IMG/VR virus record: IMGVR_UViG_2908567220_000007
Reading direction: 5' to 3' (one strand)
Source: a virus
Lineage: Duplodnaviria; Heunggongvirae; Uroviricota; Caudoviricetes
Length of the DNA: 14,602 nucleotides
Under the pieces are notes generated by a model. It did not search any database. It saw nothing but the letters and a program-made list of their open reading frames with translations, and was not told where the DNA came from. Each line of letters starts with the position of its first letter. The stretch's first letter is position 1. This document shows positions 1-6,330 of the stretch, in pieces. A program made the translations under genes and the position numbers.

Positions 1-303
1 TTACTTCCTGCGTTTATCCTGCTTTGTATGCCCGTGCTGAATGCCCCGCAGTGGATCTTCTTTTTTCAGGTCGATCCCCATGTCCGTTAGTGTTTTTGTG
101 GCGGCGGTTCTTATGGCACAAATCAGGTCTCTTTCCGGTTCCCGGGTTATGGTTGCCTTCCGGATGCATGCCGTTCGTCGTTCCGTTACATACTGACGCG
201 CTTCATCACTTGCCGCCTGTTTCAGTAACTCACCCCAGCGATTAGCCGCCCGTCGCCATAAACCTTTCGCTTCCAGTTCTTCCGCTTTGTCATCATGCAC
301 CAT
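1..303 (-). CDS. PerC-family-like small transcriptional regulator (paralog of 4278..4565)
   Basis: ORF track gives 1..372; the probable start is the internal Met at 301..303 (MVHDDKAEELEAKGLWRRAANRW...), which aligns with the start of the paralog at 4278..4565 (MIRDSKAEELEAKGLYRRAAARW...RRAECIRRA) and has a GGGA motif upstream. Family assignment rests on recalled PerC/Pch motifs, not a search. Stop codon is at window position 1..3. Confidence 0.55.
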   Translation of the reverse strand: MVHDDKAEELEAKGLWRRAANRWGELLKQAASDEARQYVTERRTACIRKATITREPERDLICAIRTAATKTLTDMGIDLKKEDPLRGIQHGHTKQDKRRK

Positions 304-417
304 AAGCATAATCCCATTGATACCTGTTAAATCTGAATGGTTGGTTTCTGTTCTTTTGATAATTTTCCGCATAGCTTATTGTATGACAGTACTGTCCCAC
401 AATAAGGAGTTGCACGC

Positions 418-708
418 ATGAGAATGACCAGGCACAAAAAACAGATCCTTGAACTCTACAAACCTGAGTATCGCGATTGGGTGCGGGTGGAGGCTGGAGA
501 TCCACCTTTTGATGTTCGTGGTGTTACAGTGCTGCTCTATGGTTCCGAATATCAGCGATATCACATAGAGGCAACACGAAGGACGCTAAACGCTATGGTT
601 CGTGATAAGTTGCTGGAGCGTGTGAAAGTCCGTGAGCCACGTTTTGATGTGCGTATTGGTGGCGATGGTGCGCATTGCACGGTAATCCGCTATGGCCTGG
701 TAAGGTAA
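418..708 (+). CDS. hypothetical protein
   Basis: 96-aa ORF with a strong Shine-Dalgarno (AAGGAG, about 8 nt upstream of ATG at 418); plausible codon usage; no recognisable family. Confidence 0.55.
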   Translation: MRMTRHKKQILELYKPEYRDWVRVEAGDPPFDVRGVTVLLYGSEYQRYHIEATRRTLNAMVRDKLLERVKVREPRFDVRIGGDGAHCTVIRYGLVR

Positions 709-810
709 GCCATCGGGTAAATCAGATGATTAAATCACCAGAATGTAAATTTACATTCTGCCAGCCACCAGCTACCCTCCTCAAAATTGAGGAGCCTTTT
801 TATCAACTGG

Positions 811-1101
811 TTACCGCCGTAACCGCTCCGGCTTCTTCCACTGGTAAGTCTTTTTCTCGCTCTCCCGGTACATCTGCACGCGGCGACGGTAGGCCAATAA
901 CTCGAGTACCCTGGTGCGTATGTCGCGCATATCCACTCCGTTAAGCTCAATACCGTCACGGCGCATCACCTCAGCCACCACACGCGCATAGTTCTCAGCG
1001 ATAACGCTGTCCGGCTGCGTGGCCTCCTGTTTGCCTGCTGGTGGTCTGATCCCGGCAATCTGGCGAATCATTTTGAGCATTTCGGCTTCGGTCATTGTCA
1101 T
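811..1101 (-). CDS. hypothetical protein
   Basis: Track ORF is 811..1125; GGAGG lies 2 nt before the ATG at 1101 and 8 nt before the ATG at 1095, so the start is probably 1095 or 1101 (MTMTEAEMLKMIRQIAG...). Convergent with 418..708. No family recognised. Confidence 0.5.
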   Translation of the reverse strand: MTMTEAEMLKMIRQIAGIRPPAGKQEATQPDSVIAENYARVVAEVMRRDGIELNGVDMRDIRTRVLELLAYRRRVQMYRESEKKTYQWKKPERLRR

Positions 1102-1384
1102 GGCCTCCAGAGGATGGGGAAACAATGCCGTAATTGTGGCGACTGATAACGGGAAGGTGAAGCGCGTTTAAGCTGGTGGATGTGGTGCCATGTTTCCCAC
1201 CAATGGTGGAAAAGCCCACCAGCGCAACGCAGGACGCATAAAACCATTGCGATGACTCATGACAGGGGGATAACCACAAAAACAACGTCAGCGGCGCGAT
1301 TCTGGCTGTTCCTGTCCGGGATGTGCATACGTATTACGTACGCAGTTAATCCGGCATAACGCATGACGTTGATGAAACGCCCCG

Positions 1385-1470
1385 ATCATCGCGGGTCCTC
1401 CTGGATGGGTACCCTTACCGCGGGGCGACGGACGCGCGGAAAAAGGCTGGTTTTTGCATTTTCATGGCGG
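1385..1470 (+). other. cos-like site copy A (cosQ-like CGGGTCCTCCTGG, cosN-like GGGCGACGGACG at 1423..1434)
   Basis: Alignable to the lambda cosQ/cosN junction and to the in-window cos at 2425; a 35-bp stretch (ccttaccgcggggcgacggacgcgcggaaaaaggct) is identical to the reverse complement of 4113..4147 (copy B). Confidence 0.5.
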
Positions 1471-1864
1471 CGGCAGCATGTGTGGTAATATATTGATAAT
1501 TAAAAGTTATTTCTGTTTTCACCTGTACAATCTTTTTTCTCCCCTGTCATTAGACCAGTTCGCAATCAATTGAAATATATAAATAAATCTGATTTTCACC
1601 TGCCAGATGGAGTTGCCAGTGTCAAATGTGAGCGGAAGCGGTGATGCTTATCACTGAATCATGCCGCATCACGATACCAGACTCCCGGTACCGCTGCGTG
1701 ATAACCCACAAGGCTGGTGGCGATGCGTTATGGTCCGTGCATTGCCATTCTCCTGGCCTGGTGGCATTATCCGGCATGAACGAGCGGTTATTCTCCGTAC
1801 TCTTAATCGTTGTTCATGGTTATTTTCTTTGTGGTAGCTGACTTCTTGATGTCCTTATCCTCCT

Positions 1865-1890
1865 GCCCCGTAATCACGGGGTATTTTTTT
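1865..1890 (+). terminator. putative rho-independent terminator
   Basis: Hairpin GCCCCGT-aatc-ACGGGGT followed by ATTTTTTT on the plus strand; no convincing upstream gene, so it may end a non-coding or short-peptide transcript. Confidence 0.4.
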
Positions 1891-2424
1891 ATCTGTGATT
1901 TGCTGTTCTTCGCTGTGTTGGTATGGGGAGTTCTGGCAATGGTTCAGGCCGTCGCTTTCCTGGTACGTGATTTTTTACGTTCATTATTGTGCTGGTGGCA
2001 GCGTCACGGTGTGTCACGACATATCACCATCACGTCACGCTGATTGCGAAAGCCAGGATTAACCAGTACCGGAACGGGTAGCCCGGTGTATTGTTACCGT
2101 CCTGCCTGCTGGTGGAGTAATTGATAACGGTTATCATCAACGGGAGGGGCGGATCAAATCCCTGCAGTCCTGGCTGTCCGGGACCGCCCGCCTACCCTTG
2201 TTCACATCGCCGCAGGTTCGAAAACTTTTTTTTTGGGAAGGTGTGCACAGACTTGATAGGTAAAACCTATCAGGTAAAGCCACGTCAAACCCGCGCCATT
2301 GCTGGCATCGTTAAAAAAACTCACTCCACCAGCAGGCTAAAAAACTGTGATTTTTCCAGCTTTTGGGGCTCAAAAAGGGCTCCCTAAAAAAACTCTCACA
2401 CTGTCGGAGGGGGCGGGAAATTTT

Positions 2425-2640
2425 CACGGGTCCTTTCCGGGATCTGAAACACCGCGGGGCGGTAGACGCGCAGGATTTCACTATTTATGAAAATTTTTCA
2501 GGGGAAAAGCGTGTCGGTACTTCTCGCGCATAACTGTTTGTTTTTATTAAAATCAACCACCAGAAACATACGACATCATAAAGCCAAAAAATCCTGTTTT
2601 TTTGGCGTTTCATGTCGGAGGTGGTTTTTGATAATAAATT
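2425..2640 (+). other. lambda-like cos site (cos1): cosQ-like 2427..2440, cosN-like GGGCGGTAGACG 2457..2468, cosB-like region downstream
   Basis: ttcacgggtcctttccgggatctgaaacaccgcg|gggcggtagacg|cgcaggatttcactatttatgaaaattttt closely matches the lambda right-end/left-end junction as I recall it (TTTACGGGTCCTTTCCGGTGATCCGACAGGTTACG|GGGCGGCGACCT|CGCGGGTTTTCGCTATTTATGAAAATTTTCC). Confidence 0.7.
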
Positions 2641-2759
2641 GGTGGATTAATGTTAATAAAAATGTTTTTACTACCTGATGGAAACAACCGGAAACGTGCC
2701 GGAGAAATTACGGCAACAGAAAGGTGAGTGACAGCCGCGCAATTATTGAACAAAACTGA

Positions 2760-2952
2760 GAAAGGATCTGATAACGTCATTTTTGGCCCAAAATGCCTAC
2801 TGTCAGATCCTTTCTTTTTTTGATGATTTTACGATTAAACAATGAGTTACAGAGAAGAAGAACGGATCTGACTTTTCCCGAAAAATTTTCATAAACAGTT
2901 AAGAATTGCGCGTACCCGTACCCCCGGCGCTTAAGGTTCCGGGAAGGACCCG
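2760..2952 (-). other. second lambda-like cos site (cos4), inverted; cosQ-like 2939..2952, divergent cosN-like around 2911..2925, cosB-like region including an inverted repeat at 2760..2821
   Basis: Minus strand reads cgggtccttcccgg...gggggtacgggtacg cgcaattcttaactgtttatgaaaatttttcgggaaaagtcagatccgttcttcttc, matching lambda cosB (TTTATGAAAATTTTCCGG...CCGTTCTTCTTCG). The inverted repeat GAAAGGATCTGA...TCAGATCCTTTC resembles the lambda inverted repeat AAAGGAAACGACAG...CTGTCGTTTCCTTTC. Confidence 0.6.
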
Positions 2953-3067
2953 CCGGAGATAGCTACCATAAGGCGTAATTAAATATCCGTGGATGTGCCA
3001 CGGAACAACCAGCTGAATACAGGTCAGCGTGATGACGGGAAATAAAGAGAATGGTTGCGAATCCTCC

Positions 3068-3092
3068 ACCTGGTGAATCTCCTGCACTACCT
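3068..3092. repeat. 25-bp direct repeat (copy 1) of the 3' end of the Nu1-like gene
   Basis: cctggtgaatctcctgcactacctg is identical at 3068..3092 and 3445..3469; the second copy encodes the C-terminus QVVQEIHQGE of the 3437..3985 ORF. Confidence 0.85.
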
Positions 3093-3436
3093 GTCATTTT
3101 TGCGCAAATACCCCTGGCATTTCTAAGCATGATCAACCTGATCATTGTTCGCGGTTTTTACGTGGCAAGGCCAGTAATTACGGGGCTTACATCAATGTTT
3201 ATTCCGCCCATCTCTGCGCAAAACAACTTAACAAACCTTAACATCACAGGCGGAACCATTGCGCAAATCTGGAGGCTTACCGCACGCACCAGCCTGATAC
3301 ATTGCCAGAATGAACGAGGTGCGACACAATGTGTGTGCATGTCTTACTCATTGAACCTCAATCAAGGCGCATCCTTAGCGGTGCGCTTTTATTTTTTTGT
3401 CGTTCCCTGCTGGTGGATGTTTTCCGGTACCGCGAA

Positions 3437-3985
3437 TTATTCCCCCTGGTGAATCTCCTGCACTACCTGCGGCGTGCTGTCGTGCCAGTCGTTAGCCTGT
3501 ATCACTCTGGTAGTAATTTGCCTGCACAGGTCATCAATAATCTGCCTGACGCGGTTTACTGCGTTCTGATTGATGCCTGCATCGTGCGCCAGAATGTCGG
3601 GGAGTTTTGCCAGTTCCTCGCTTAAGATTTTCCCAAAAATAACCAACTCCCTGCGCACATCCACGGCGGGGATAAGTTCAGCCGTTTCCTGCTCGAACTT
3701 AAGGCGCTCACGCTCAGACTGGTACCAGGCTTTACGGCTTTGTGGATCCATGTCTTCGAGTGATGCGGGGGCGGGTATATTCATGAATGCGCTGATTATA
3801 TCCGTCAGTCGGTACAGCTTTAATTTTTCATGCCCTCCGGCTGGCTGAATGTCCTTTAGCCTTTTCGCTACTGTCTGGCGGCAAACTCCCGCCAGTTCTG
3901 CGAGTTGATTGATATTAAGTTTCAGGTTTTTAAGCTCCCGATCCATTCGTCCTCCGGTAGTTTTAAATGCGTATCGTGCGCTCAT
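3437..3985 (-). CDS. Nu1-like terminase small subunit / packaging-redirection protein (N-terminal HTH)
   Basis: 182-aa ORF; N-terminal NINQLAELAGVCRQTVAKRL...KLYRLTDIISAF resembles the lambda Nu1 HTH (NKKQLADIFGASIRTIQNW...VLYDSAAVIKWY). Sits about 150-190 bp downstream of cos copy B, as Nu1 does after lambda cos. An internal Met at 3944..3946 with GGAGGA upstream is an alternative start. Confidence 0.55.
   Translation of the reverse strand: MSARYAFKTTGGRMDRELKNLKLNINQLAELAGVCRQTVAKRLKDIQPAGGHEKLKLYRLTDIISAFMNIPAPASLEDMDPQSRKAWYQSERERLKFEQETAELIPAVDVRRELVIFGKILSEELAKLPDILAHDAGINQNAVNRVRQIIDDLCRQITTRVIQANDWHDSTPQVVQEIHQGE
3445..3469. repeat. 25-bp direct repeat (copy 2), overlapping the 3' end of the Nu1-like gene
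   Basis: Exact match to 3068..3092, 377 bp apart. Confidence 0.85.
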
Positions 3986-4100
3986 CTTTCAGTGGGTTAA
4001 AAGTGTTCTGTATGTTGAACAAAAAACACCCCAAATTAACATAGTAAAAATATATTTCATTTTAATTCAACATGTTGGAAAGATGATGATGACGGATGAA
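3986..4100 (-). promoter_or_regulatory. AT-rich cosB-like / promoter region upstream of the Nu1-like gene, with inverted TGTTGAA/TTCAACA sites
   Basis: atgttgaac at 4005..4013 and ttcaacatgttg at 4059..4070 form inverted copies about 50 bp apart in an AT-rich stretch, similar in layout to R elements flanking an IHF site in lambda cosB. Confidence 0.4.
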
Positions 4101-4185
4101 AATGTAAAAATTAGCCTTTTTCCGCGCGTCCGTCGCCCCGCGGTAAGGCCACCCCTCCGGAAGGACCCGTAAAAAAAGCCGGAGT
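4100..4185 (-). other. cos-like site copy B (cosQ-like 4157..4170, cosN-like 4127..4138 on the minus strand)
   Basis: Minus strand reads tttacgggtccttccggaggggtggccttaccgcg|gggcgacggacg|cgcggaaaaaggct, matching the lambda cosQ/cosN junction and near-identical to copy A at 1391..1448. Confidence 0.55.
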
Positions 4186-4194
4186 GTTCCGGCT
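4171..4194 (-). terminator. putative rho-independent terminator after the PerC-like gene
   Basis: Minus-strand hairpin AGCCGGA-acac-TCCGGCT followed by TTTTTTT (plus-strand A-run 4171..4177). Confidence 0.5.
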
Positions 4195-4277
4195 TCGTCT
4201 GTGTATGTGCGCATATGCAGGATTTTATGTTATCCGCCCACGGGAGTGATGGTCATTTTTCAGGATAATATCCGGCA

Positions 4278-4565
4278 TCACTGGTTACCGCCAGGCTGCT
4301 TCGGGTAGTTCCGCCAGACGGATTTACCCGCGTCTTCCATCCCCATCACCGCATGAGTGCGGTTTACAGCCTCTTTCAGTGCCCCGAAGTTATCCGCCAT
4401 AACGGGTGGGCGTGCTGCCCTGCGGATGCATTCCGCGCGACGCTTTGCCACCTGTTCGCGCTCCTTATCGGTGTTCACCAGCTGCATGACCTCAGCCCAC
4501 CGCGCCGCCGCTCTCCGGTACAGGCCTTTAGCCTCCAGTTCTTCCGCTTTGCTGTCACGAATCAT
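4278..4565 (-). CDS. PerC-family-like small transcriptional regulator
   Basis: 95-aa ORF MIRDSKAEELEAKGLYRRAAARWAEVM...RRAECIRRA, paralogous to 1..303; start overlaps the stop of the upstream ORF by 4 nt. Confidence 0.55.
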   Translation of the reverse strand: MIRDSKAEELEAKGLYRRAAARWAEVMQLVNTDKEREQVAKRRAECIRRAARPPVMADNFGALKEAVNRTHAVMGMEDAGKSVWRNYPKQPGGNQ

Positions 4566-5098
4566 GCGCCTGTCTTCTCCTTTGTCGCCTGACGTTTGCG
4601 CTTTTCATTCAGTGCTGCCAGCCGCGTTTCTGCCTCCTGCTGTTCCTGTGGTGTCACTTCCCCACATGGCTGGCCTTTCAGGTCGTAACGTGTGCCACCA
4701 GCCATTAAGGCGCGGTAATAGCGCGGAGACTGCGCATAAGATGCCAGCGTCGCACGTAATGCCCCCGGCCCGAATGTCAGCCCCCTGGCGGCGATATCCT
4801 GTATCAGGTCGTCGAATATCCCCACCTTAAGCGGCTTCGGTGCTTTATGGCTGAATAAGTCAGGCCACATCTCAGTGAGGCGGTTAACGCGTCGGCGGTT
4901 TTTGCGCTGCCTTTTGGTCATATGCTGACACGGTGTCGCCCCTGCGGTCTTCTGTTTGCGGCTCTGCTGTGCGTTCTGATTATCGGGTATCACTTTATGC
5001 GCCGATGTGGTTTTATCCTGCTCTTGTGCCGCCTGCGTCGTTTTCTGCGGCGTGCCGTAAATGCCTTTCGGTTTTCGGTTAATGGTCAGCTTTGTCAT
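4562..5098 (-). CDS. ProQ/FinO-domain protein (putative RNA chaperone)
   Basis: 178 aa; PLKVGIFDDLIQDIAARG...LRATLASYAQSPRYYRAL...GTRYDLKGQPCGEVTPQEQQEAE resembles the ProQ N-terminal FinO domain (PLKIGIFQDL...LRSALRLYTSSWRYL...[23 protein letters not shown], recalled). Basic, low-complexity N-terminus. SD AGGGGA upstream. Confidence 0.7.
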   Translation of the reverse strand: MTKLTINRKPKGIYGTPQKTTQAAQEQDKTTSAHKVIPDNQNAQQSRKQKTAGATPCQHMTKRQRKNRRRVNRLTEMWPDLFSHKAPKPLKVGIFDDLIQDIAARGLTFGPGALRATLASYAQSPRYYRALMAGGTRYDLKGQPCGEVTPQEQQEAETRLAALNEKRKRQATKEKTGA

Positions 5099-5134: not shown

Positions 5135-5560
5135 TTAAAACGGTATGTTATCCCCGTACGGGTCATCGTGCTGGCTTGTCTGTTGTTTTGCCCTGTTCAG
5201 TGCGTCAGTGGCCTGGCCCTGTTGACCTTTTTTGCCGCCCGGTCGCGCCGTTCGCGCACTGATTACGCTGTCTGCAATAACCTGCCAGCCCTGCCGCGTT
5301 TCCCCGTTCTGGCCTGTCCACTGGCTTACCTGCATGTTACCCGCCACGCTCACCAGTTCGCCTTTCTGGTGCCTGGCCAGTGCGTCGGCCTGTCTGCCAA
5401 ACGCCAGGACGGATAACCACATCGTCGCCGTTCCGTCATCTGCCTGGCTGCACGGCAGGGGAACCGCCATACTCGCCATCGCCATTTGTGTCCCTTTGCT
5501 GGTGGTCTTTAACTGCGGGTCAGCCACCAGCCGCCCGTAAGCCGCTATCTGTGCTGTCAT
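5135..5560 (-). CDS. ssb: single-stranded DNA-binding protein (SSB-like)
   Basis: 141 aa; OB-fold-like N-terminal region (AAYGRLVADPQLKTT...GTATMWLSVLAFGRQADALARHQKGELVSVAGNMQVSQWTGQNGETRQGWQVIADSV), Gly/Gln-rich linker and a C-terminal DDPYGDNIPF resembling the canonical SSB DDDIPF tip. ATGA overlap with the upstream ORF. Confidence 0.7.
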   Translation of the reverse strand: MTAQIAAYGRLVADPQLKTTSKGTQMAMASMAVPLPCSQADDGTATMWLSVLAFGRQADALARHQKGELVSVAGNMQVSQWTGQNGETRQGWQVIADSVISARTARPGGKKGQQGQATDALNRAKQQTSQHDDPYGDNIPF

Positions 5561-6330
5561 GCTGTATGTTCTCCGTTTTTTACTGGCCCTGTCATCAGTG
5601 CGCGCTTAAGCTGCTTGTGTGAGATATTAAACAGGCAGTTCATTCTTCCCGTTCGCTTCATCCGATAACCCGATGCGACCATTGCGGCGATTAATGCGCC
5701 GTTTGTGATGTATGTCGGCTCTGTTGGTTGCCCGTCGCCCTTAGCTCTTCTCTGATTCACACGCTCAACACAATGTTTCAGGCCGTAGGATGTCGGATTT
5801 TTTCCAGGGAATGATGCAATCTTACAGTCGGTTAGGTTGTTCTCCCTTATCCAGCGTAAACAGCTCATCGCCTCCGCCATGAAGGGCGCATAATCAAGCG
5901 GGTGCTGCCATGCCTTATCACGGCTGTACAGTTCAAGTCCGTCGCGGTTAAAAAACGGGTAAGCGGCAAGAATTACCGTTACTGCGTGTTTAATTTCCAC
6001 CTCATCATTCTGTCGCTCTTTTTCTGTTCCGTACGGATAATAATCAGAACCGCCCGGATTGATGCACTGTTTACCACTGAAAGGCCATTGCTTCGCCATT
6101 TCGGGGGTTGAGTGATTACCGTCGCTCCGTTCTCGTTGTGCCTCTGTCCACTGGCTGGCGTATTCCGTAAAACTCACCGCCTTACTCTGTCGCATCCAGT
6201 GCGCAATCATGACCAGCGTTCTGGTAAGGCTCTGTATATCTCCGTGCTTCTCACACTGTCCCGCAAAGGCCTTGAGCGCTTCGCGTTCTTTGTAGTTCAT
6301 ACCCTGACGGGTCATATTTTCTTTATTCAT
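5557..6330 (-). CDS. hypothetical protein, replication-module associated
   Basis: 257-aa ORF immediately downstream of the iteron array and translationally coupled to the SSB-like gene; no family recognised by eye. Confidence 0.55.
   Translation of the reverse strand: MNKENMTRQGMNYKEREALKAFAGQCEKHGDIQSLTRTLVMIAHWMRQSKAVSFTEYASQWTEAQRERSDGNHSTPEMAKQWPFSGKQCINPGGSDYYPYGTEKERQNDEVEIKHAVTVILAAYPFFNRDGLELYSRDKAWQHPLDYAPFMAEAMSCLRWIRENNLTDCKIASFPGKNPTSYGLKHCVERVNQRRAKGDGQPTEPTYITNGALIAAMVASGYRMKRTGRMNCLFNISHKQLKRALMTGPVKNGEHTA

Follow-up and report, generated by a model that had tools for sequence, protein, structure and literature searches.

Setting of the segment within the satellite

The stretch of DNA analysed here (the window, 14,602 nucleotides in full) is a PICI-like satellite of E. 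coli, which adjoins tRNA-Pro and yejM. Our analysis centred on positions 1470 to 2043 of this window, a segment which had been described in an earlier note as gene-poor. This description is accurate, as in the near-identical strain STEC313 (NZ_CP041433) the whole region from window position 1096 to 2899 is devoid of any PGAP annotation. Gene callers give conflicting results for it, proposing plus-strand open reading frames (ORFs) of 47, 65 and 81 amino acids as well as one ORF on the minus strand. Searches for tRNA or tmRNA genes and for tandem repeats found none. The segment is a composite spacer which is located within the packaging module of the satellite, termed the 'multi-cos' module below.

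Judged by sequence, the island has four or more lambdoid cos copies, together with one cos region of the HK97 type. The small terminase gene terS has been deleted in the window, and a Nu1-family terS is present in some relatives. Just upstream of the studied segment lies the core of cos copy A (1392..1465, plus strand), which is of the lambdoid type and comprises a cosQ-like ACGGGTCCTCC motif and cosN. This core forms an inverted repeat with positions 4096-4169 (89% identity), and the lambda and cdtI cos sites can be aligned with it. The surroundings are in fact more striking than the segment itself, with five cos sites, inversions between the cos sites and a high density of Chi sites.

A captured phage cosB

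The left end of the lambdoid phages cdtI and Tritos (positions 13-234 of the phage genomes) matches the window at 1435-1656 with 90.5–91.4% identity, and the cosB arm, running from cosN to terS, has the same order and orientation as in a cos phage. In detail, homology to cdtI and Tritos identifies 1466..1606 on the plus strand as a cosB of phage type, which is the arm that separates cosN from terS and is rich in AT (GC content 0.33), and homology to cdtI identifies 1607..1657 on the same strand as the stub of a DUF1441-type terS, consisting of an ATG and 16 codons and then a TGA. Window position 1607 corresponds to the terS start of cdtI at genome position 185, and the phage homology stops at 1656. 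The stretch 1435-1656 has been exchanged for other sequence in several relatives and is missing in one third of the relatives. On the evidence of this homology, it represents a cosB arm with a 16-codon terS stub, i.e. part of a cos site which appears to have been captured from a cdtI/Tritos-like lambdoid helper and which probably lets the terminase of the helper itself recognise the island.

The extended -10-like sequence reported near 1480 is present as TGTGGTAATAT at 1481-1491. It has no -35 partner, however, was not called by the promoter scan and is not conserved, since relatives and phages show the variants TGTAGTAATAT, TGTGATAATTT and TTTAGTAATTT. The motif sits within the cosB that is homologous to cdtI (91%), and as far as homology can tell it is a part of the captured cosB. 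This portion of the gene-poor region is packaging DNA and not an unexplained gap.

The hydrophobic reading frame in the right third

The right third of the segment (1891..2043, plus strand) is a poorly conserved spacer with a hydrophobic ORF, an indel, a Chi site (1991-1998) and GTCACG repeats around 2004-2040. As had been described, the ORF runs from a TTG at 1900 or an ATG at 1939 to a stop codon at 2041-2043, and the ATG follows GGGGAG (1925-1930). The ORF is not conserved, however. A stretch of 67 nt (1921-1987), which is flanked by TGTGYTGGT direct repeats (repeat boundaries read from the sequence), is missing in 14 of the 28 E. coli genomes that bear the segment. This indel, which is not a multiple of three, takes away the Shine-Dalgarno sequence and the ATG together with the greater part of the hydrophobic portion. 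Among the genomes that retain these 67 nt, the frame meets a premature stop in relative L018, and in L010 and L011 a deletion of 73 nt has cost it the stop codon.

Among 5.8 billion protein clusters, the ORF at 1900-2043 has only three near-identical E. coli entries, and it gave no match in Pfam, PHROG or NCBIfam. More generally, none of the ORFs of at least 30 amino acids in 1600-2400 gave a credible match to a protein family, and searches of protein databases with the 77-aa and 66-aa ORFs returned close E. coli copies only.

The earlier note had proposed that this ORF might encode a small membrane peptide resembling a type I toxin, and had named lack of conservation of the peptide in related islands among the results that would refute this. 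A good Shine-Dalgarno sequence 8 nt before the ATG at 1939 and a hydrophobic N-terminal half are what such a peptide would have, but the indel, the premature stop, the stop loss, the three near-identical proteins and the lack of a family all speak against it. In addition, a simple consensus scan of 1700-2100 found no promoter- or terminator-like sites on the minus strand, and hence no antisense RNA gene, and the residues 'CWW' of the ORF are simply the Chi site at 1991-1998. As the ORF decays in the relatives, the proposal has to be abandoned and we consider a toxin-like peptide at this place highly improbable. The ORF is probably not a real gene and should not carry a toxin gene annotation; the right third as a whole may best be regarded as drifting spacer.

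A conserved unit with its own predicted promoter and terminator

Between the captured cosB and the drifting spacer the situation is different. A moderately conserved block with a Chi site at 1713-1720 (1700..1741, plus strand; 2 of 20 sites variable in 1700-1719) is followed by a sigma-70 promoter-like sequence on the same strand (1742..1770), which was found by consensus scan and conservation and consists of TTGCCA, a 17-nt spacer and CATTAT with a preceding TGg (extended -10). Its hexamers lie within the 16–18 nt spacing of such promoters and are conserved in the relatives, and its activity is predicted. The hexamers and the TGG vary at only 1 of 15 positions, compared to 7 of 14 for the 17-nt spacer (Fisher p = 0.014). 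Four promoter-like matches were found in the region where 3.7 are expected, so that a single match is within chance; between cos A and the terminator this is the only promoter call on the plus strand, and the same holds for relative L002. A coding signal is absent upstream, as the 22 variable sites at 1711-1776 are spread over the codon positions as 7/7/8 (hand count).

The terminator which had been noticed before at the end of this region is real and closes a conserved unit with its own predicted promoter. It consists of a hairpin (1864-1883) and a run of seven T (1884-1890), together 1864..1890 on the plus strand, and was recognised by hairpin call, folding and invariance. The stem has eight pairs, five of them G-C, with the loop AATC. 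With a folding energy of -13 kcal/mol (z = -4.1; 0 of 200 shuffles fold as well) and a core (1866-1881, CCCCGTAATCACGGGG) that is unchanged in all 14 distinct variants, it is both beyond chance and conserved, which holds for neither the -10-like motif nor the hydrophobic ORF. Termination in vivo is predicted.

Two other roles of the terminator were considered and rejected. It is not the end of the ProQ-PerC operon, as relative L029 has a terminator between PerC and the cos site; this role is further contradicted by a similar hairpin with a T-run near 4165-4184 in the window (read from the sequence) and by the occurrence of the unit in both orientations. The same facts imply that the unit requires a dedicated promoter, because its orientation with respect to the ProQ-PerC operon is not fixed, both being found, and because in L029 the PerC operon ends in its own terminator before the cos site. 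An attenuator, with the branched-chain codons VLLIVV followed by the terminator, was rejected in the absence of an antiterminator pairing and of downstream biosynthetic genes.

Promoter and terminator together predict a transcript of about 115 nt (1776..1890, plus strand), a candidate small RNA (sRNA) with its 5' end placed by the promoter and its 3' end by the terminator. Variability is about 7-fold lower in the core of the unit (1777-1839, 3 of 63 sites) than in its flanks (35 of 103; p = 6e-6), and the drop in variability starts at the predicted transcription start. The RNA 1776-1890 has a minimum free energy of -31.3 kcal/mol (z = -3.9), which was equalled by none of 200 shuffles. Folding predicts a 5' stem-loop, SL1 (1776..1817, plus strand; -11.5 kcal/mol, z = -3.2), with 14 pairs and a CU-rich loop of 13 nt, UUCUCCGUACUCU. 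The changes across variants in SL1 are three one-sided ones (one from A-U to G-U, two from G-U to A-U) and break no pair. Covariation was not seen, with double changes at 0 of 27 pairs and none of the pairs broken in sequences that are very similar to each other.

The earlier suggestion of a structured non-coding RNA extending from 1480 to 1890 thus finds support only with other boundaries: that stretch is not one conserved unit, but a shorter unit, made up of the promoter at 1742-1770 and the RNA at 1776-1890, is conserved and folds beyond shuffles. The proposed comparison with known RNA families had a negative outcome, as covariance-model searches of the whole window gave no Rfam match when gathering thresholds were applied; with the cut-off relaxed to E ≤ 5, the stretch 1000-3500 yielded only one irrelevant match of 14.5 bits at 2365-2399.

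Distribution of the unit

The unit is carried by about 28 of 5426 E. coli genomes and no copy was found in the others. Phages yielded no homologs of 1657-2118, nor any of 1735-1895 even with the cut-off raised to E ≤ 10. When the species genomes of GTDB were scanned for a 20-mer, a single match came up, which showed no similarity beyond the 20-mer and is attributed to chance. Scans of viral and metagenome sequences recovered only the near-identical family, plus two new single-base variants. Finally, a covariance model of the unit (R1), which scores 135 bits on the copy in the window, was run on 64 further islands that bear ProQ and on five phage loci, where no match outside the family had an E value below 3.8.

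A ProQ gene is present in 72 of 72 related viral-contig loci, the unit in only about eight distinct contigs. This poor co-occurrence (about 8 of 72) excludes the unit as a general partner of the ProQ/FinO protein of the island.

Small RNA, micro-peptide, leader or binding site

We favour a small RNA over a leaderless micro-peptide. That the conserved unit is a trans-acting regulatory sRNA of the satellite, with its own promoter and terminator, is a tentative reading of the sequence, to which we give somewhat less than an even chance. Transcription would begin near A1776, driven by the promoter at 1742-1770, which looks constitutive, and would stop near 1890 at the intrinsic terminator. The RNA would then consist of SL1 with its 13-nt loop, which resembles an anti-Shine-Dalgarno sequence, a U-rich linker, the terminator hairpin and the U7 tail. 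We would expect it to pair with the ribosome-binding sites of mRNAs from the island or the helper phage, probably assisted by Hfq or a ProQ/FinO-type chaperone. Searches for targets by duplex energy gave nothing above shuffles with the whole RNA, and matches at the extreme-value level only with the loop or the linker alone. The best match in the island was the translation initiation region of the ORF at 5557-6330, whose -20 kcal/mol is about the extreme expected from 29,480 windows.

The core of the unit is also spanned by an ORF of 21 codons, MNERLFSVLLIVVHGYFLCGS, from an ATG at 1776 to a TGA at 1841 (1776..1841, plus strand). If transcription starts at A1776, which is the A of this ATG, the transcript would be a leaderless mRNA for a hydrophobic micro-peptide of 21 residues, e.g. 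a small membrane protein that interferes with lysis or injection of the helper or a toxin-like one, and the terminator would merely end the gene. We consider this possible but not likely. The conserved block spans the ORF exactly from ATG to stop, with indels and clustered substitutions beginning right past the stop. Three of the four changes within it fall in third positions: two are synonymous (GAG>GAA, CGG>CGA), the others are TTT>TTG (F>L) and TGT>TAT (C>Y). The stop itself is changed from TGA to TAA in most variants. However, the ORF lacks a Shine-Dalgarno sequence and matches no protein family, the conflicting output of the gene callers likewise speaks against it, and there are only two synonymous changes where about 4–5 are predicted from the divergence of the flanks (our estimate). 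Moreover, its AUG is paired at the base of the SL1 stem and is replaced in four variants by GUG, which initiates leaderless translation poorly; three of these have also lost the stop, while the remaining core is unchanged. All observed changes in the core fit both the stem-loop and the ORF. The pairing of the AUG in SL1 and the GUG of the four variants disfavour leaderless translation and leave the RNA reading unaffected.

The position of the unit suggests another role, in which it would be a regulated leader resembling the pR'-6S RNA-tR' region of lambda. An antiterminator from the helper or the island would permit RNA polymerase to continue into the cos sites further down and also, where relatives have one, into a Nu1-type terS, so that the packaging functions of the island are switched on only with an active helper. 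Consistent with this, the unit always precedes the HK97-type cos block and cos B and points in the same direction as they do; in five relatives (L002, L006, L007, L012 and L013) it is followed by a co-oriented terS of the Nu1 family, and in L002 the promoter of the unit is the only plus-strand call upstream of this gene. In four others (L008, L009, L010 and L018), however, the terS segment has the opposite orientation to the unit, and terS is deleted from the window; the unit has been kept in all of them. There is no evident antiterminator pairing with the 5' arm of the terminator. Helpers of the mEp235 type use a lambda-type Q with qut; the spacer between -35 and -10, where the Q element would be sited, is the most variable part of the island promoter. 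Similarity to lambda pR'/qut or to the late region of cdtI is not significant: local alignment with lambda 43800-45300 scored 22, against 18.8 ± 2.1 for shuffles, and did not reveal a pR'/qut element. An apparent homology to lambda pR' seen by eye (AACGAT.GGTTAATTC, TTGTGGTAG) was rejected as it was no better than shuffles. We consider such a leader improbable.

A role of the core as DNA, with three direct GGTTATT repeats and an ATGAAC/GTTCAT palindrome forming an array to which a protein of the island or the helper with a packaging or regulatory function would bind, appears to us quite improbable, slightly more so than the leader. The GGTTATT repeats are 32–35 bp apart in most relatives, and in L002 they read GGTTATTCTCC, ATGGTTATTTGC and ATGGTTATTATCC and follow one another roughly every three helical turns. 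The location between cos sites would suit such an array. In the window, GGTTATT is mildly over-represented (6 found, 1.8 expected) and two of the repeat copies are present, but the third is degenerate in the window lineage. In addition, promoter and terminator frame the conserved block exactly, and over 350 bp separate the core from the nearest cosN. Two G-U pairs make the stem of SL1 better as an RNA than as a DNA palindrome, and the change from A-U to G-U breaks the palindrome and spares the RNA helix.

Returning to the small regulator, we suggest, speculatively and as an unlikely possibility, that an undescribed one, be it the sRNA with its roughly 115 nt or the leaderless peptide of 21 residues, biases packaging toward the satellite through the packaging and late mRNAs of helper or island. 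Such a regulator would be embedded in, and inherited with, the multi-cos, invertible and Chi-dense packaging module.

Comparison with known systems

The region 1392-1656 resembles a lambdoid cos site in its cosQ-like and cosN core, cosB arm and terS start, with 91% identity to cdtI. The PICI EcCICFT073 of E. coli has two cos sites, so that a PICI with multiple cos sites has already been described (Fillol-Salom et al. 2019, PMC6739421). The island in the window differs from it in having at least four lambdoid cos sites and one HK97-type region, the functions of which are predicted only. Furthermore, EcCICFT073 has island-specific cosB elements which are recognised through Rpp, whereas the copy in the window retains a phage cosB.

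Ibs, ShoB and TisB represent the class of type I toxin peptides and very small hydrophobic proteins. The 21-codon ORF is similar to these in encoding a short peptide with a hydrophobic centre on a structured RNA followed by a terminator, and differs in that the scan revealed no antisense RNA gene and the ORF has neither a Shine-Dalgarno sequence nor a family match. The 47-residue ORF in the right third is wholly unconserved.

With the pR'-6S RNA-tR' region of lambda the unit has in common a promoter, a short terminated transcript and, in some relatives, cos and terS downstream. It differs in that the sequence match is at the level of shuffles and terS does not always have the same orientation with respect to the unit.

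The trans-acting sRNAs of prophages and satellites offer a parallel to the reading that we favour. StxS, the short pR' transcript of Stx phages, is one of those that end in an intrinsic terminator. Such RNAs are further exemplified by IsrK of Gifsy-1 (PMC4825925) and, as reported, by the sRNA of the V. cholerae PLE, which is also a precedent for an sRNA encoded by a satellite (bioRxiv 10.1101/2022.04.08.487710). The candidate at 1776-1890 resembles them in its length of about 115 nt, its dedicated promoter, the 5' stem-loop whose exposed loop is rich in pyrimidines, the terminator with a long U tail and the location on a mobile element beside late or packaging functions, and it differs in having no sequence or covariance-model match to any Rfam family. 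As it has just a single promoter, hairpin loop and terminator, the unit is a compact and testable target, and the cos sites and TerS-like genes of the module are already assayable. Provided that the 115-nt unit is expressed, a layer of RNA or micro-peptide would be added to the dealings between E. coli satellites and their helpers, a layer which in the literature we found has been documented only for the Vibrio PLE. Should a small regulator at this place bias packaging as speculated above, it would be the first hijacking function at the level of RNA or micro-peptide in an enterobacterial PICI-like element.

Island context and the phage-type cosB arm

Window 1-4700 shows 99.5% identity to an island in the E. 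coli STEC313 chromosome that is located between yejO on one side and tRNA-Pro/yejM on the other. The island encodes an integrase, a small HTH regulator, an Icd-like protein, a DUF927 primase-helicase, an SSB, a ProQ/FinO-family protein, two PerC-family regulators and a DUF1441 protein with a match to PHROG 141 (small terminase), a gene content that is PICI-like, i.e. that of a phage satellite. The two PerC-family regulators and the ProQ/FinO-domain RNA-binding protein are found at 1-372, 4278-4565 and 4562-5098, all on the minus strand; the PerC family includes PerC and Pch, which activate the LEE of EPEC/EHEC. The ProQ/FinO-domain gene shares an operon with SSB and was present in all of the related viral-contig loci (72/72). 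The cargo beside the packaging module differs among the related islands L009, L010, L011 and L012: L010 carries an F4-family fimbrial subunit; L011 and L012 both carry an S-type pyocin gene, accompanied by a DUF6392 gene in the former and by one for bacteriocin immunity in the latter, and a reverse-transcriptase-domain protein is also encoded in L011.

The segment downstream of cos copy A had been described as gene-poor, and indeed it falls within a gap in the PGAP annotation from 1096 to 2899, which is a packaging-site array. Window 1435-1656 is 90.5-91.4% identical to positions 13-234 of the phages cdtI and Tritos; for 1392-1656, the identity to HannyBb is 88%. The DUF1441 small-terminase gene of cdtI starts at position 185, corresponding to window 1607, where an ATG and 16 codons are left before a stop; the homology ends at 1656. 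From this homology and the matching terS start, 1435-1656 is identified as the cosB arm belonging to cos copy A, together with a stub of terS. The arm is AT-rich (GC 0.33), like other cosB arms.

The -10-like TGTGGTAATAT, from which a transcript starting near 1480 had been suggested, is present at 1481-1491 inside this arm; it lacks a -35 partner, and the promoter scan did not call it. Since the motif differs in cdtI, HannyBb and several relatives, and since one group of relatives (L006, L007, L011, L012 and L013) has the whole arm replaced by a shorter, unrelated sequence, a start at ~1480 is not a conserved feature.

The ORF ending at 2043

Of 5426 complete E. coli genomes, just 28 contain the segment 1657-2118, each time within an island of this family (a count of 645 genomes derives from the HK97-type cos part and not from this segment). 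Half of these genomes (14/28) lack 1921-1987, an indel of 67 nt flanked by direct repeats (TGTGYTGGT); with it go the GGGGAG, ATG 1939 and most hydrophobic residues of the ORF (TTG 1900 or ATG 1939 to 2043) proposed to encode a small membrane peptide of the type I toxin kind. Among the variants keeping 1921-1987, L018 has a premature stop (…CWW*), and in L010 and L011, which are without 2032-2104, the frame continues into other sequence. No protein families matched the ORF, and the protein database matches were three near-identical E. coli entries only. The frame is thus open in the window but not conserved among relatives; selection does not maintain it, and calling it a gene would be unwarranted, and the membrane peptide, which the earlier note itself had tied to conservation in related islands, is refuted.

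A conserved unit and a candidate small RNA

By sequence comparison, ~1700-1890 is the only well-conserved piece of the interval. The terminator noted before was confirmed as an 8-pair stem (1864-1883) followed by T7 (1884-1890) with -13 kcal/mol and z = -4.1, and its hairpin core (1866-1881) is invariant in 16 distinct sequences. Across 16 distinct sequences, 3 of 63 sites are variable in 1777-1839, compared to 35 of 103 in the flanks 1700-1776 and 1840-1865 (Fisher p = 6e-6). The sole plus-strand sigma-70-like site of the region (1742-1770; TTGCCA, 17 nt, CATTAT, preceded by TGg), likewise found in L002, varies at 1 of 15 positions in the hexamers and TG as against 7 of 14 in the spacer, whose length is constant (p = 0.014). 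Transcription would be expected to start at ~A1776, where conservation begins. Although PGAP annotations occasionally contain a 47-aa ORF or one on the minus strand near the region upstream of 1776, nothing there looks coding, because the 22 variable sites at 1711-1776 split 7/7/8 over the codon positions (hand count) and the indels are not multiples of three.

The predicted RNA of 115-117 nt (window 1776-1890) folds at -31.3 kcal/mol (z = -3.9) into a 14-pair 5' stem-loop (SL1), whose 13-nt loop reads UUCUCCGUACUCU, a second but weak hairpin, a linker rich in C and U, and the terminator. None of 14 distinct variants, two of them from metagenomes, breaks a pair; three one-sided changes keep pairing (A-U to G-U once, G-U to A-U twice) and double changes are absent, so that the predicted structure is compatible with the data. 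The structured RNA suggested earlier therefore survives in this narrower unit, without its start at ~1480, and we tentatively regard the unit as a candidate sRNA, a reading to which we give slightly less than even weight.

The conserved block also coincides exactly with a 21-codon ORF (ATG1776 to TGA1841, MNERLFSVLLIVVHGYFLCGS) and might instead be a micro-peptide gene, as the three pairing-neutral changes can equally be read as one exchange of the start codon (ATG>GTG) and two synonymous substitutions, and most variants close the frame with TGA or TAA; two amino-acid changes, F>L and C>Y, were seen. We consider this the less likely of the two readings, however, as the ORF has no SD, its AUG is paired in the predicted RNA, synonymous changes are fewer than predicted from flank divergence, and four variants have GTG for ATG, three of which have lost the stop as well, with the core otherwise unaltered.

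In all cases the HK97-type cos block and cos B follow the unit directly and in the same orientation, and from this constant arrangement we conclude that the unit travels with one version of the packaging module. In relatives, a small-terminase gene of the Nu1 family is found downstream of cos B (Pfam Phage_Nu1, E = 1.5e-67; L002 7178-7780), and ~500 bp including most of this gene are missing from the window and its closest relatives (window junction 2662/2670). Since this terS follows the unit in the same orientation in some relatives, a regulated, pR'-tR'-like leader suggested itself; yet terS is inverted relative to the unit in others, similarity to lambda pR'/qut is at shuffle level and mEp235-type helpers use lambda-type qut, which makes such a leader improbable. 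Action of the conserved block as a DNA site is, by a little, less probable still, and the rest of the probability falls to a unit without function.

Returning to the candidate sRNA, a covariance-model search assigned it to no Rfam family, the unit showed no similarity in 50,697 phage records and no copy in genomes of other species, and a covariance model built from the family found nothing in 64 other ProQ-bearing islands. As the ProQ gene is present in all these islands and the unit in few, the latter is not a general client of the ProQ protein. Target searches by duplex scans of the island, a relative and phage pieces gave nothing clearly beyond the extreme expected from the window number; the best predicted match (-20 kcal/mol), between the SL1 loop and the ribosome-binding region of the ORF 5557-6330 (-), is statistically no better than this extreme and may serve as a lead only. 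The site (6346-6317, minus strand) covers the GGGGA Shine-Dalgarno and the AUG of this ORF, which encodes 257 aa and lies upstream of SSB. GGTTATT direct repeats occur 32-35 nt apart inside the unit (window 1786-1792 and 1818-1824; L002 6387, 6419 and 6454), in three copies in most relatives; in the lineage of the window, which has also lost terS, the third copy has degenerated. The unit is a candidate for an unannotated, family-restricted small transcription unit in a satellite packaging region.

The packaging-site array

A ~75-nt element is present in four copies. Copies A (1392-1465, plus strand) and D (4096-4169, minus strand) belong to the cdtI type; in A the cosB is still that of the phage, and in D it is another one, next to the island's DUF1441 gene. 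Copies B (2427-2502, plus strand) and C (2877-2952, minus strand) have a lambda-like cosB arm. In an alignment with the joined lambda and cdtI ends, each of the four copies contains a cosQ-like ACGGGTCCTT(C/T)C motif and a cosN-like core. In addition, 2119-2298 is a fifth, HK97-type cos region, similar both to the right end of mEp235 and, at 78% for phi467, to the HNH-terS intergenic region of HK97-like phages. Just upstream of it, GTCACG occurs three times (~2004-2040, spacings ~10 and 19 nt) together with ATCAC motifs, overlapping the 3' end of the ORF 1900/1939-2043; these repeats could be a protein-binding array.

Comparison of the window with L008, L009, L010, L012, L016, L018 and L020 revealed both orientations of the segments 1466-4095 (between A and D) and 2510-2876 (between B and C) among natural relatives. 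As both lie between inverted cos pairs, recombination at the cos cores appears to invert the DNA, which would alter which cosB or terS follows which neighbour.

Chi (GCTGGTGG) is found 18 times in 14.6 kb compared to 0.59 expected and a maximum of 3 in 200 shuffles, at 1037, 1172, 1713, 1991, 2108, 3409, 5498, 10716, 11721 and 13041 on the plus strand and at 765, 1216, 2326, 4695, 5524, 9723, 12344 and 13433 on the minus strand. Chi is dense throughout the island family (median of 0.94 per kb, 69 loci) and also at the right end of phage cdtI. Three plus-strand sites just left and one minus-strand site just right of the HK97-type cos are in the orientation recognised by RecBCD entering from cos-cut ends. 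Chi-rich lambdoid phages have been described, with no mention of satellites (PMC12315714).

Taken together, a stretch of 2.8 kb contains five packaging sites (four lambdoid cos and one of the HK97/mEp235 type), suggesting a satellite able to use several helper lineages. A PICI with two cos sites, EcCICFT073, has already been published (PMC6739421), as compared to the five packaging sites of the window.
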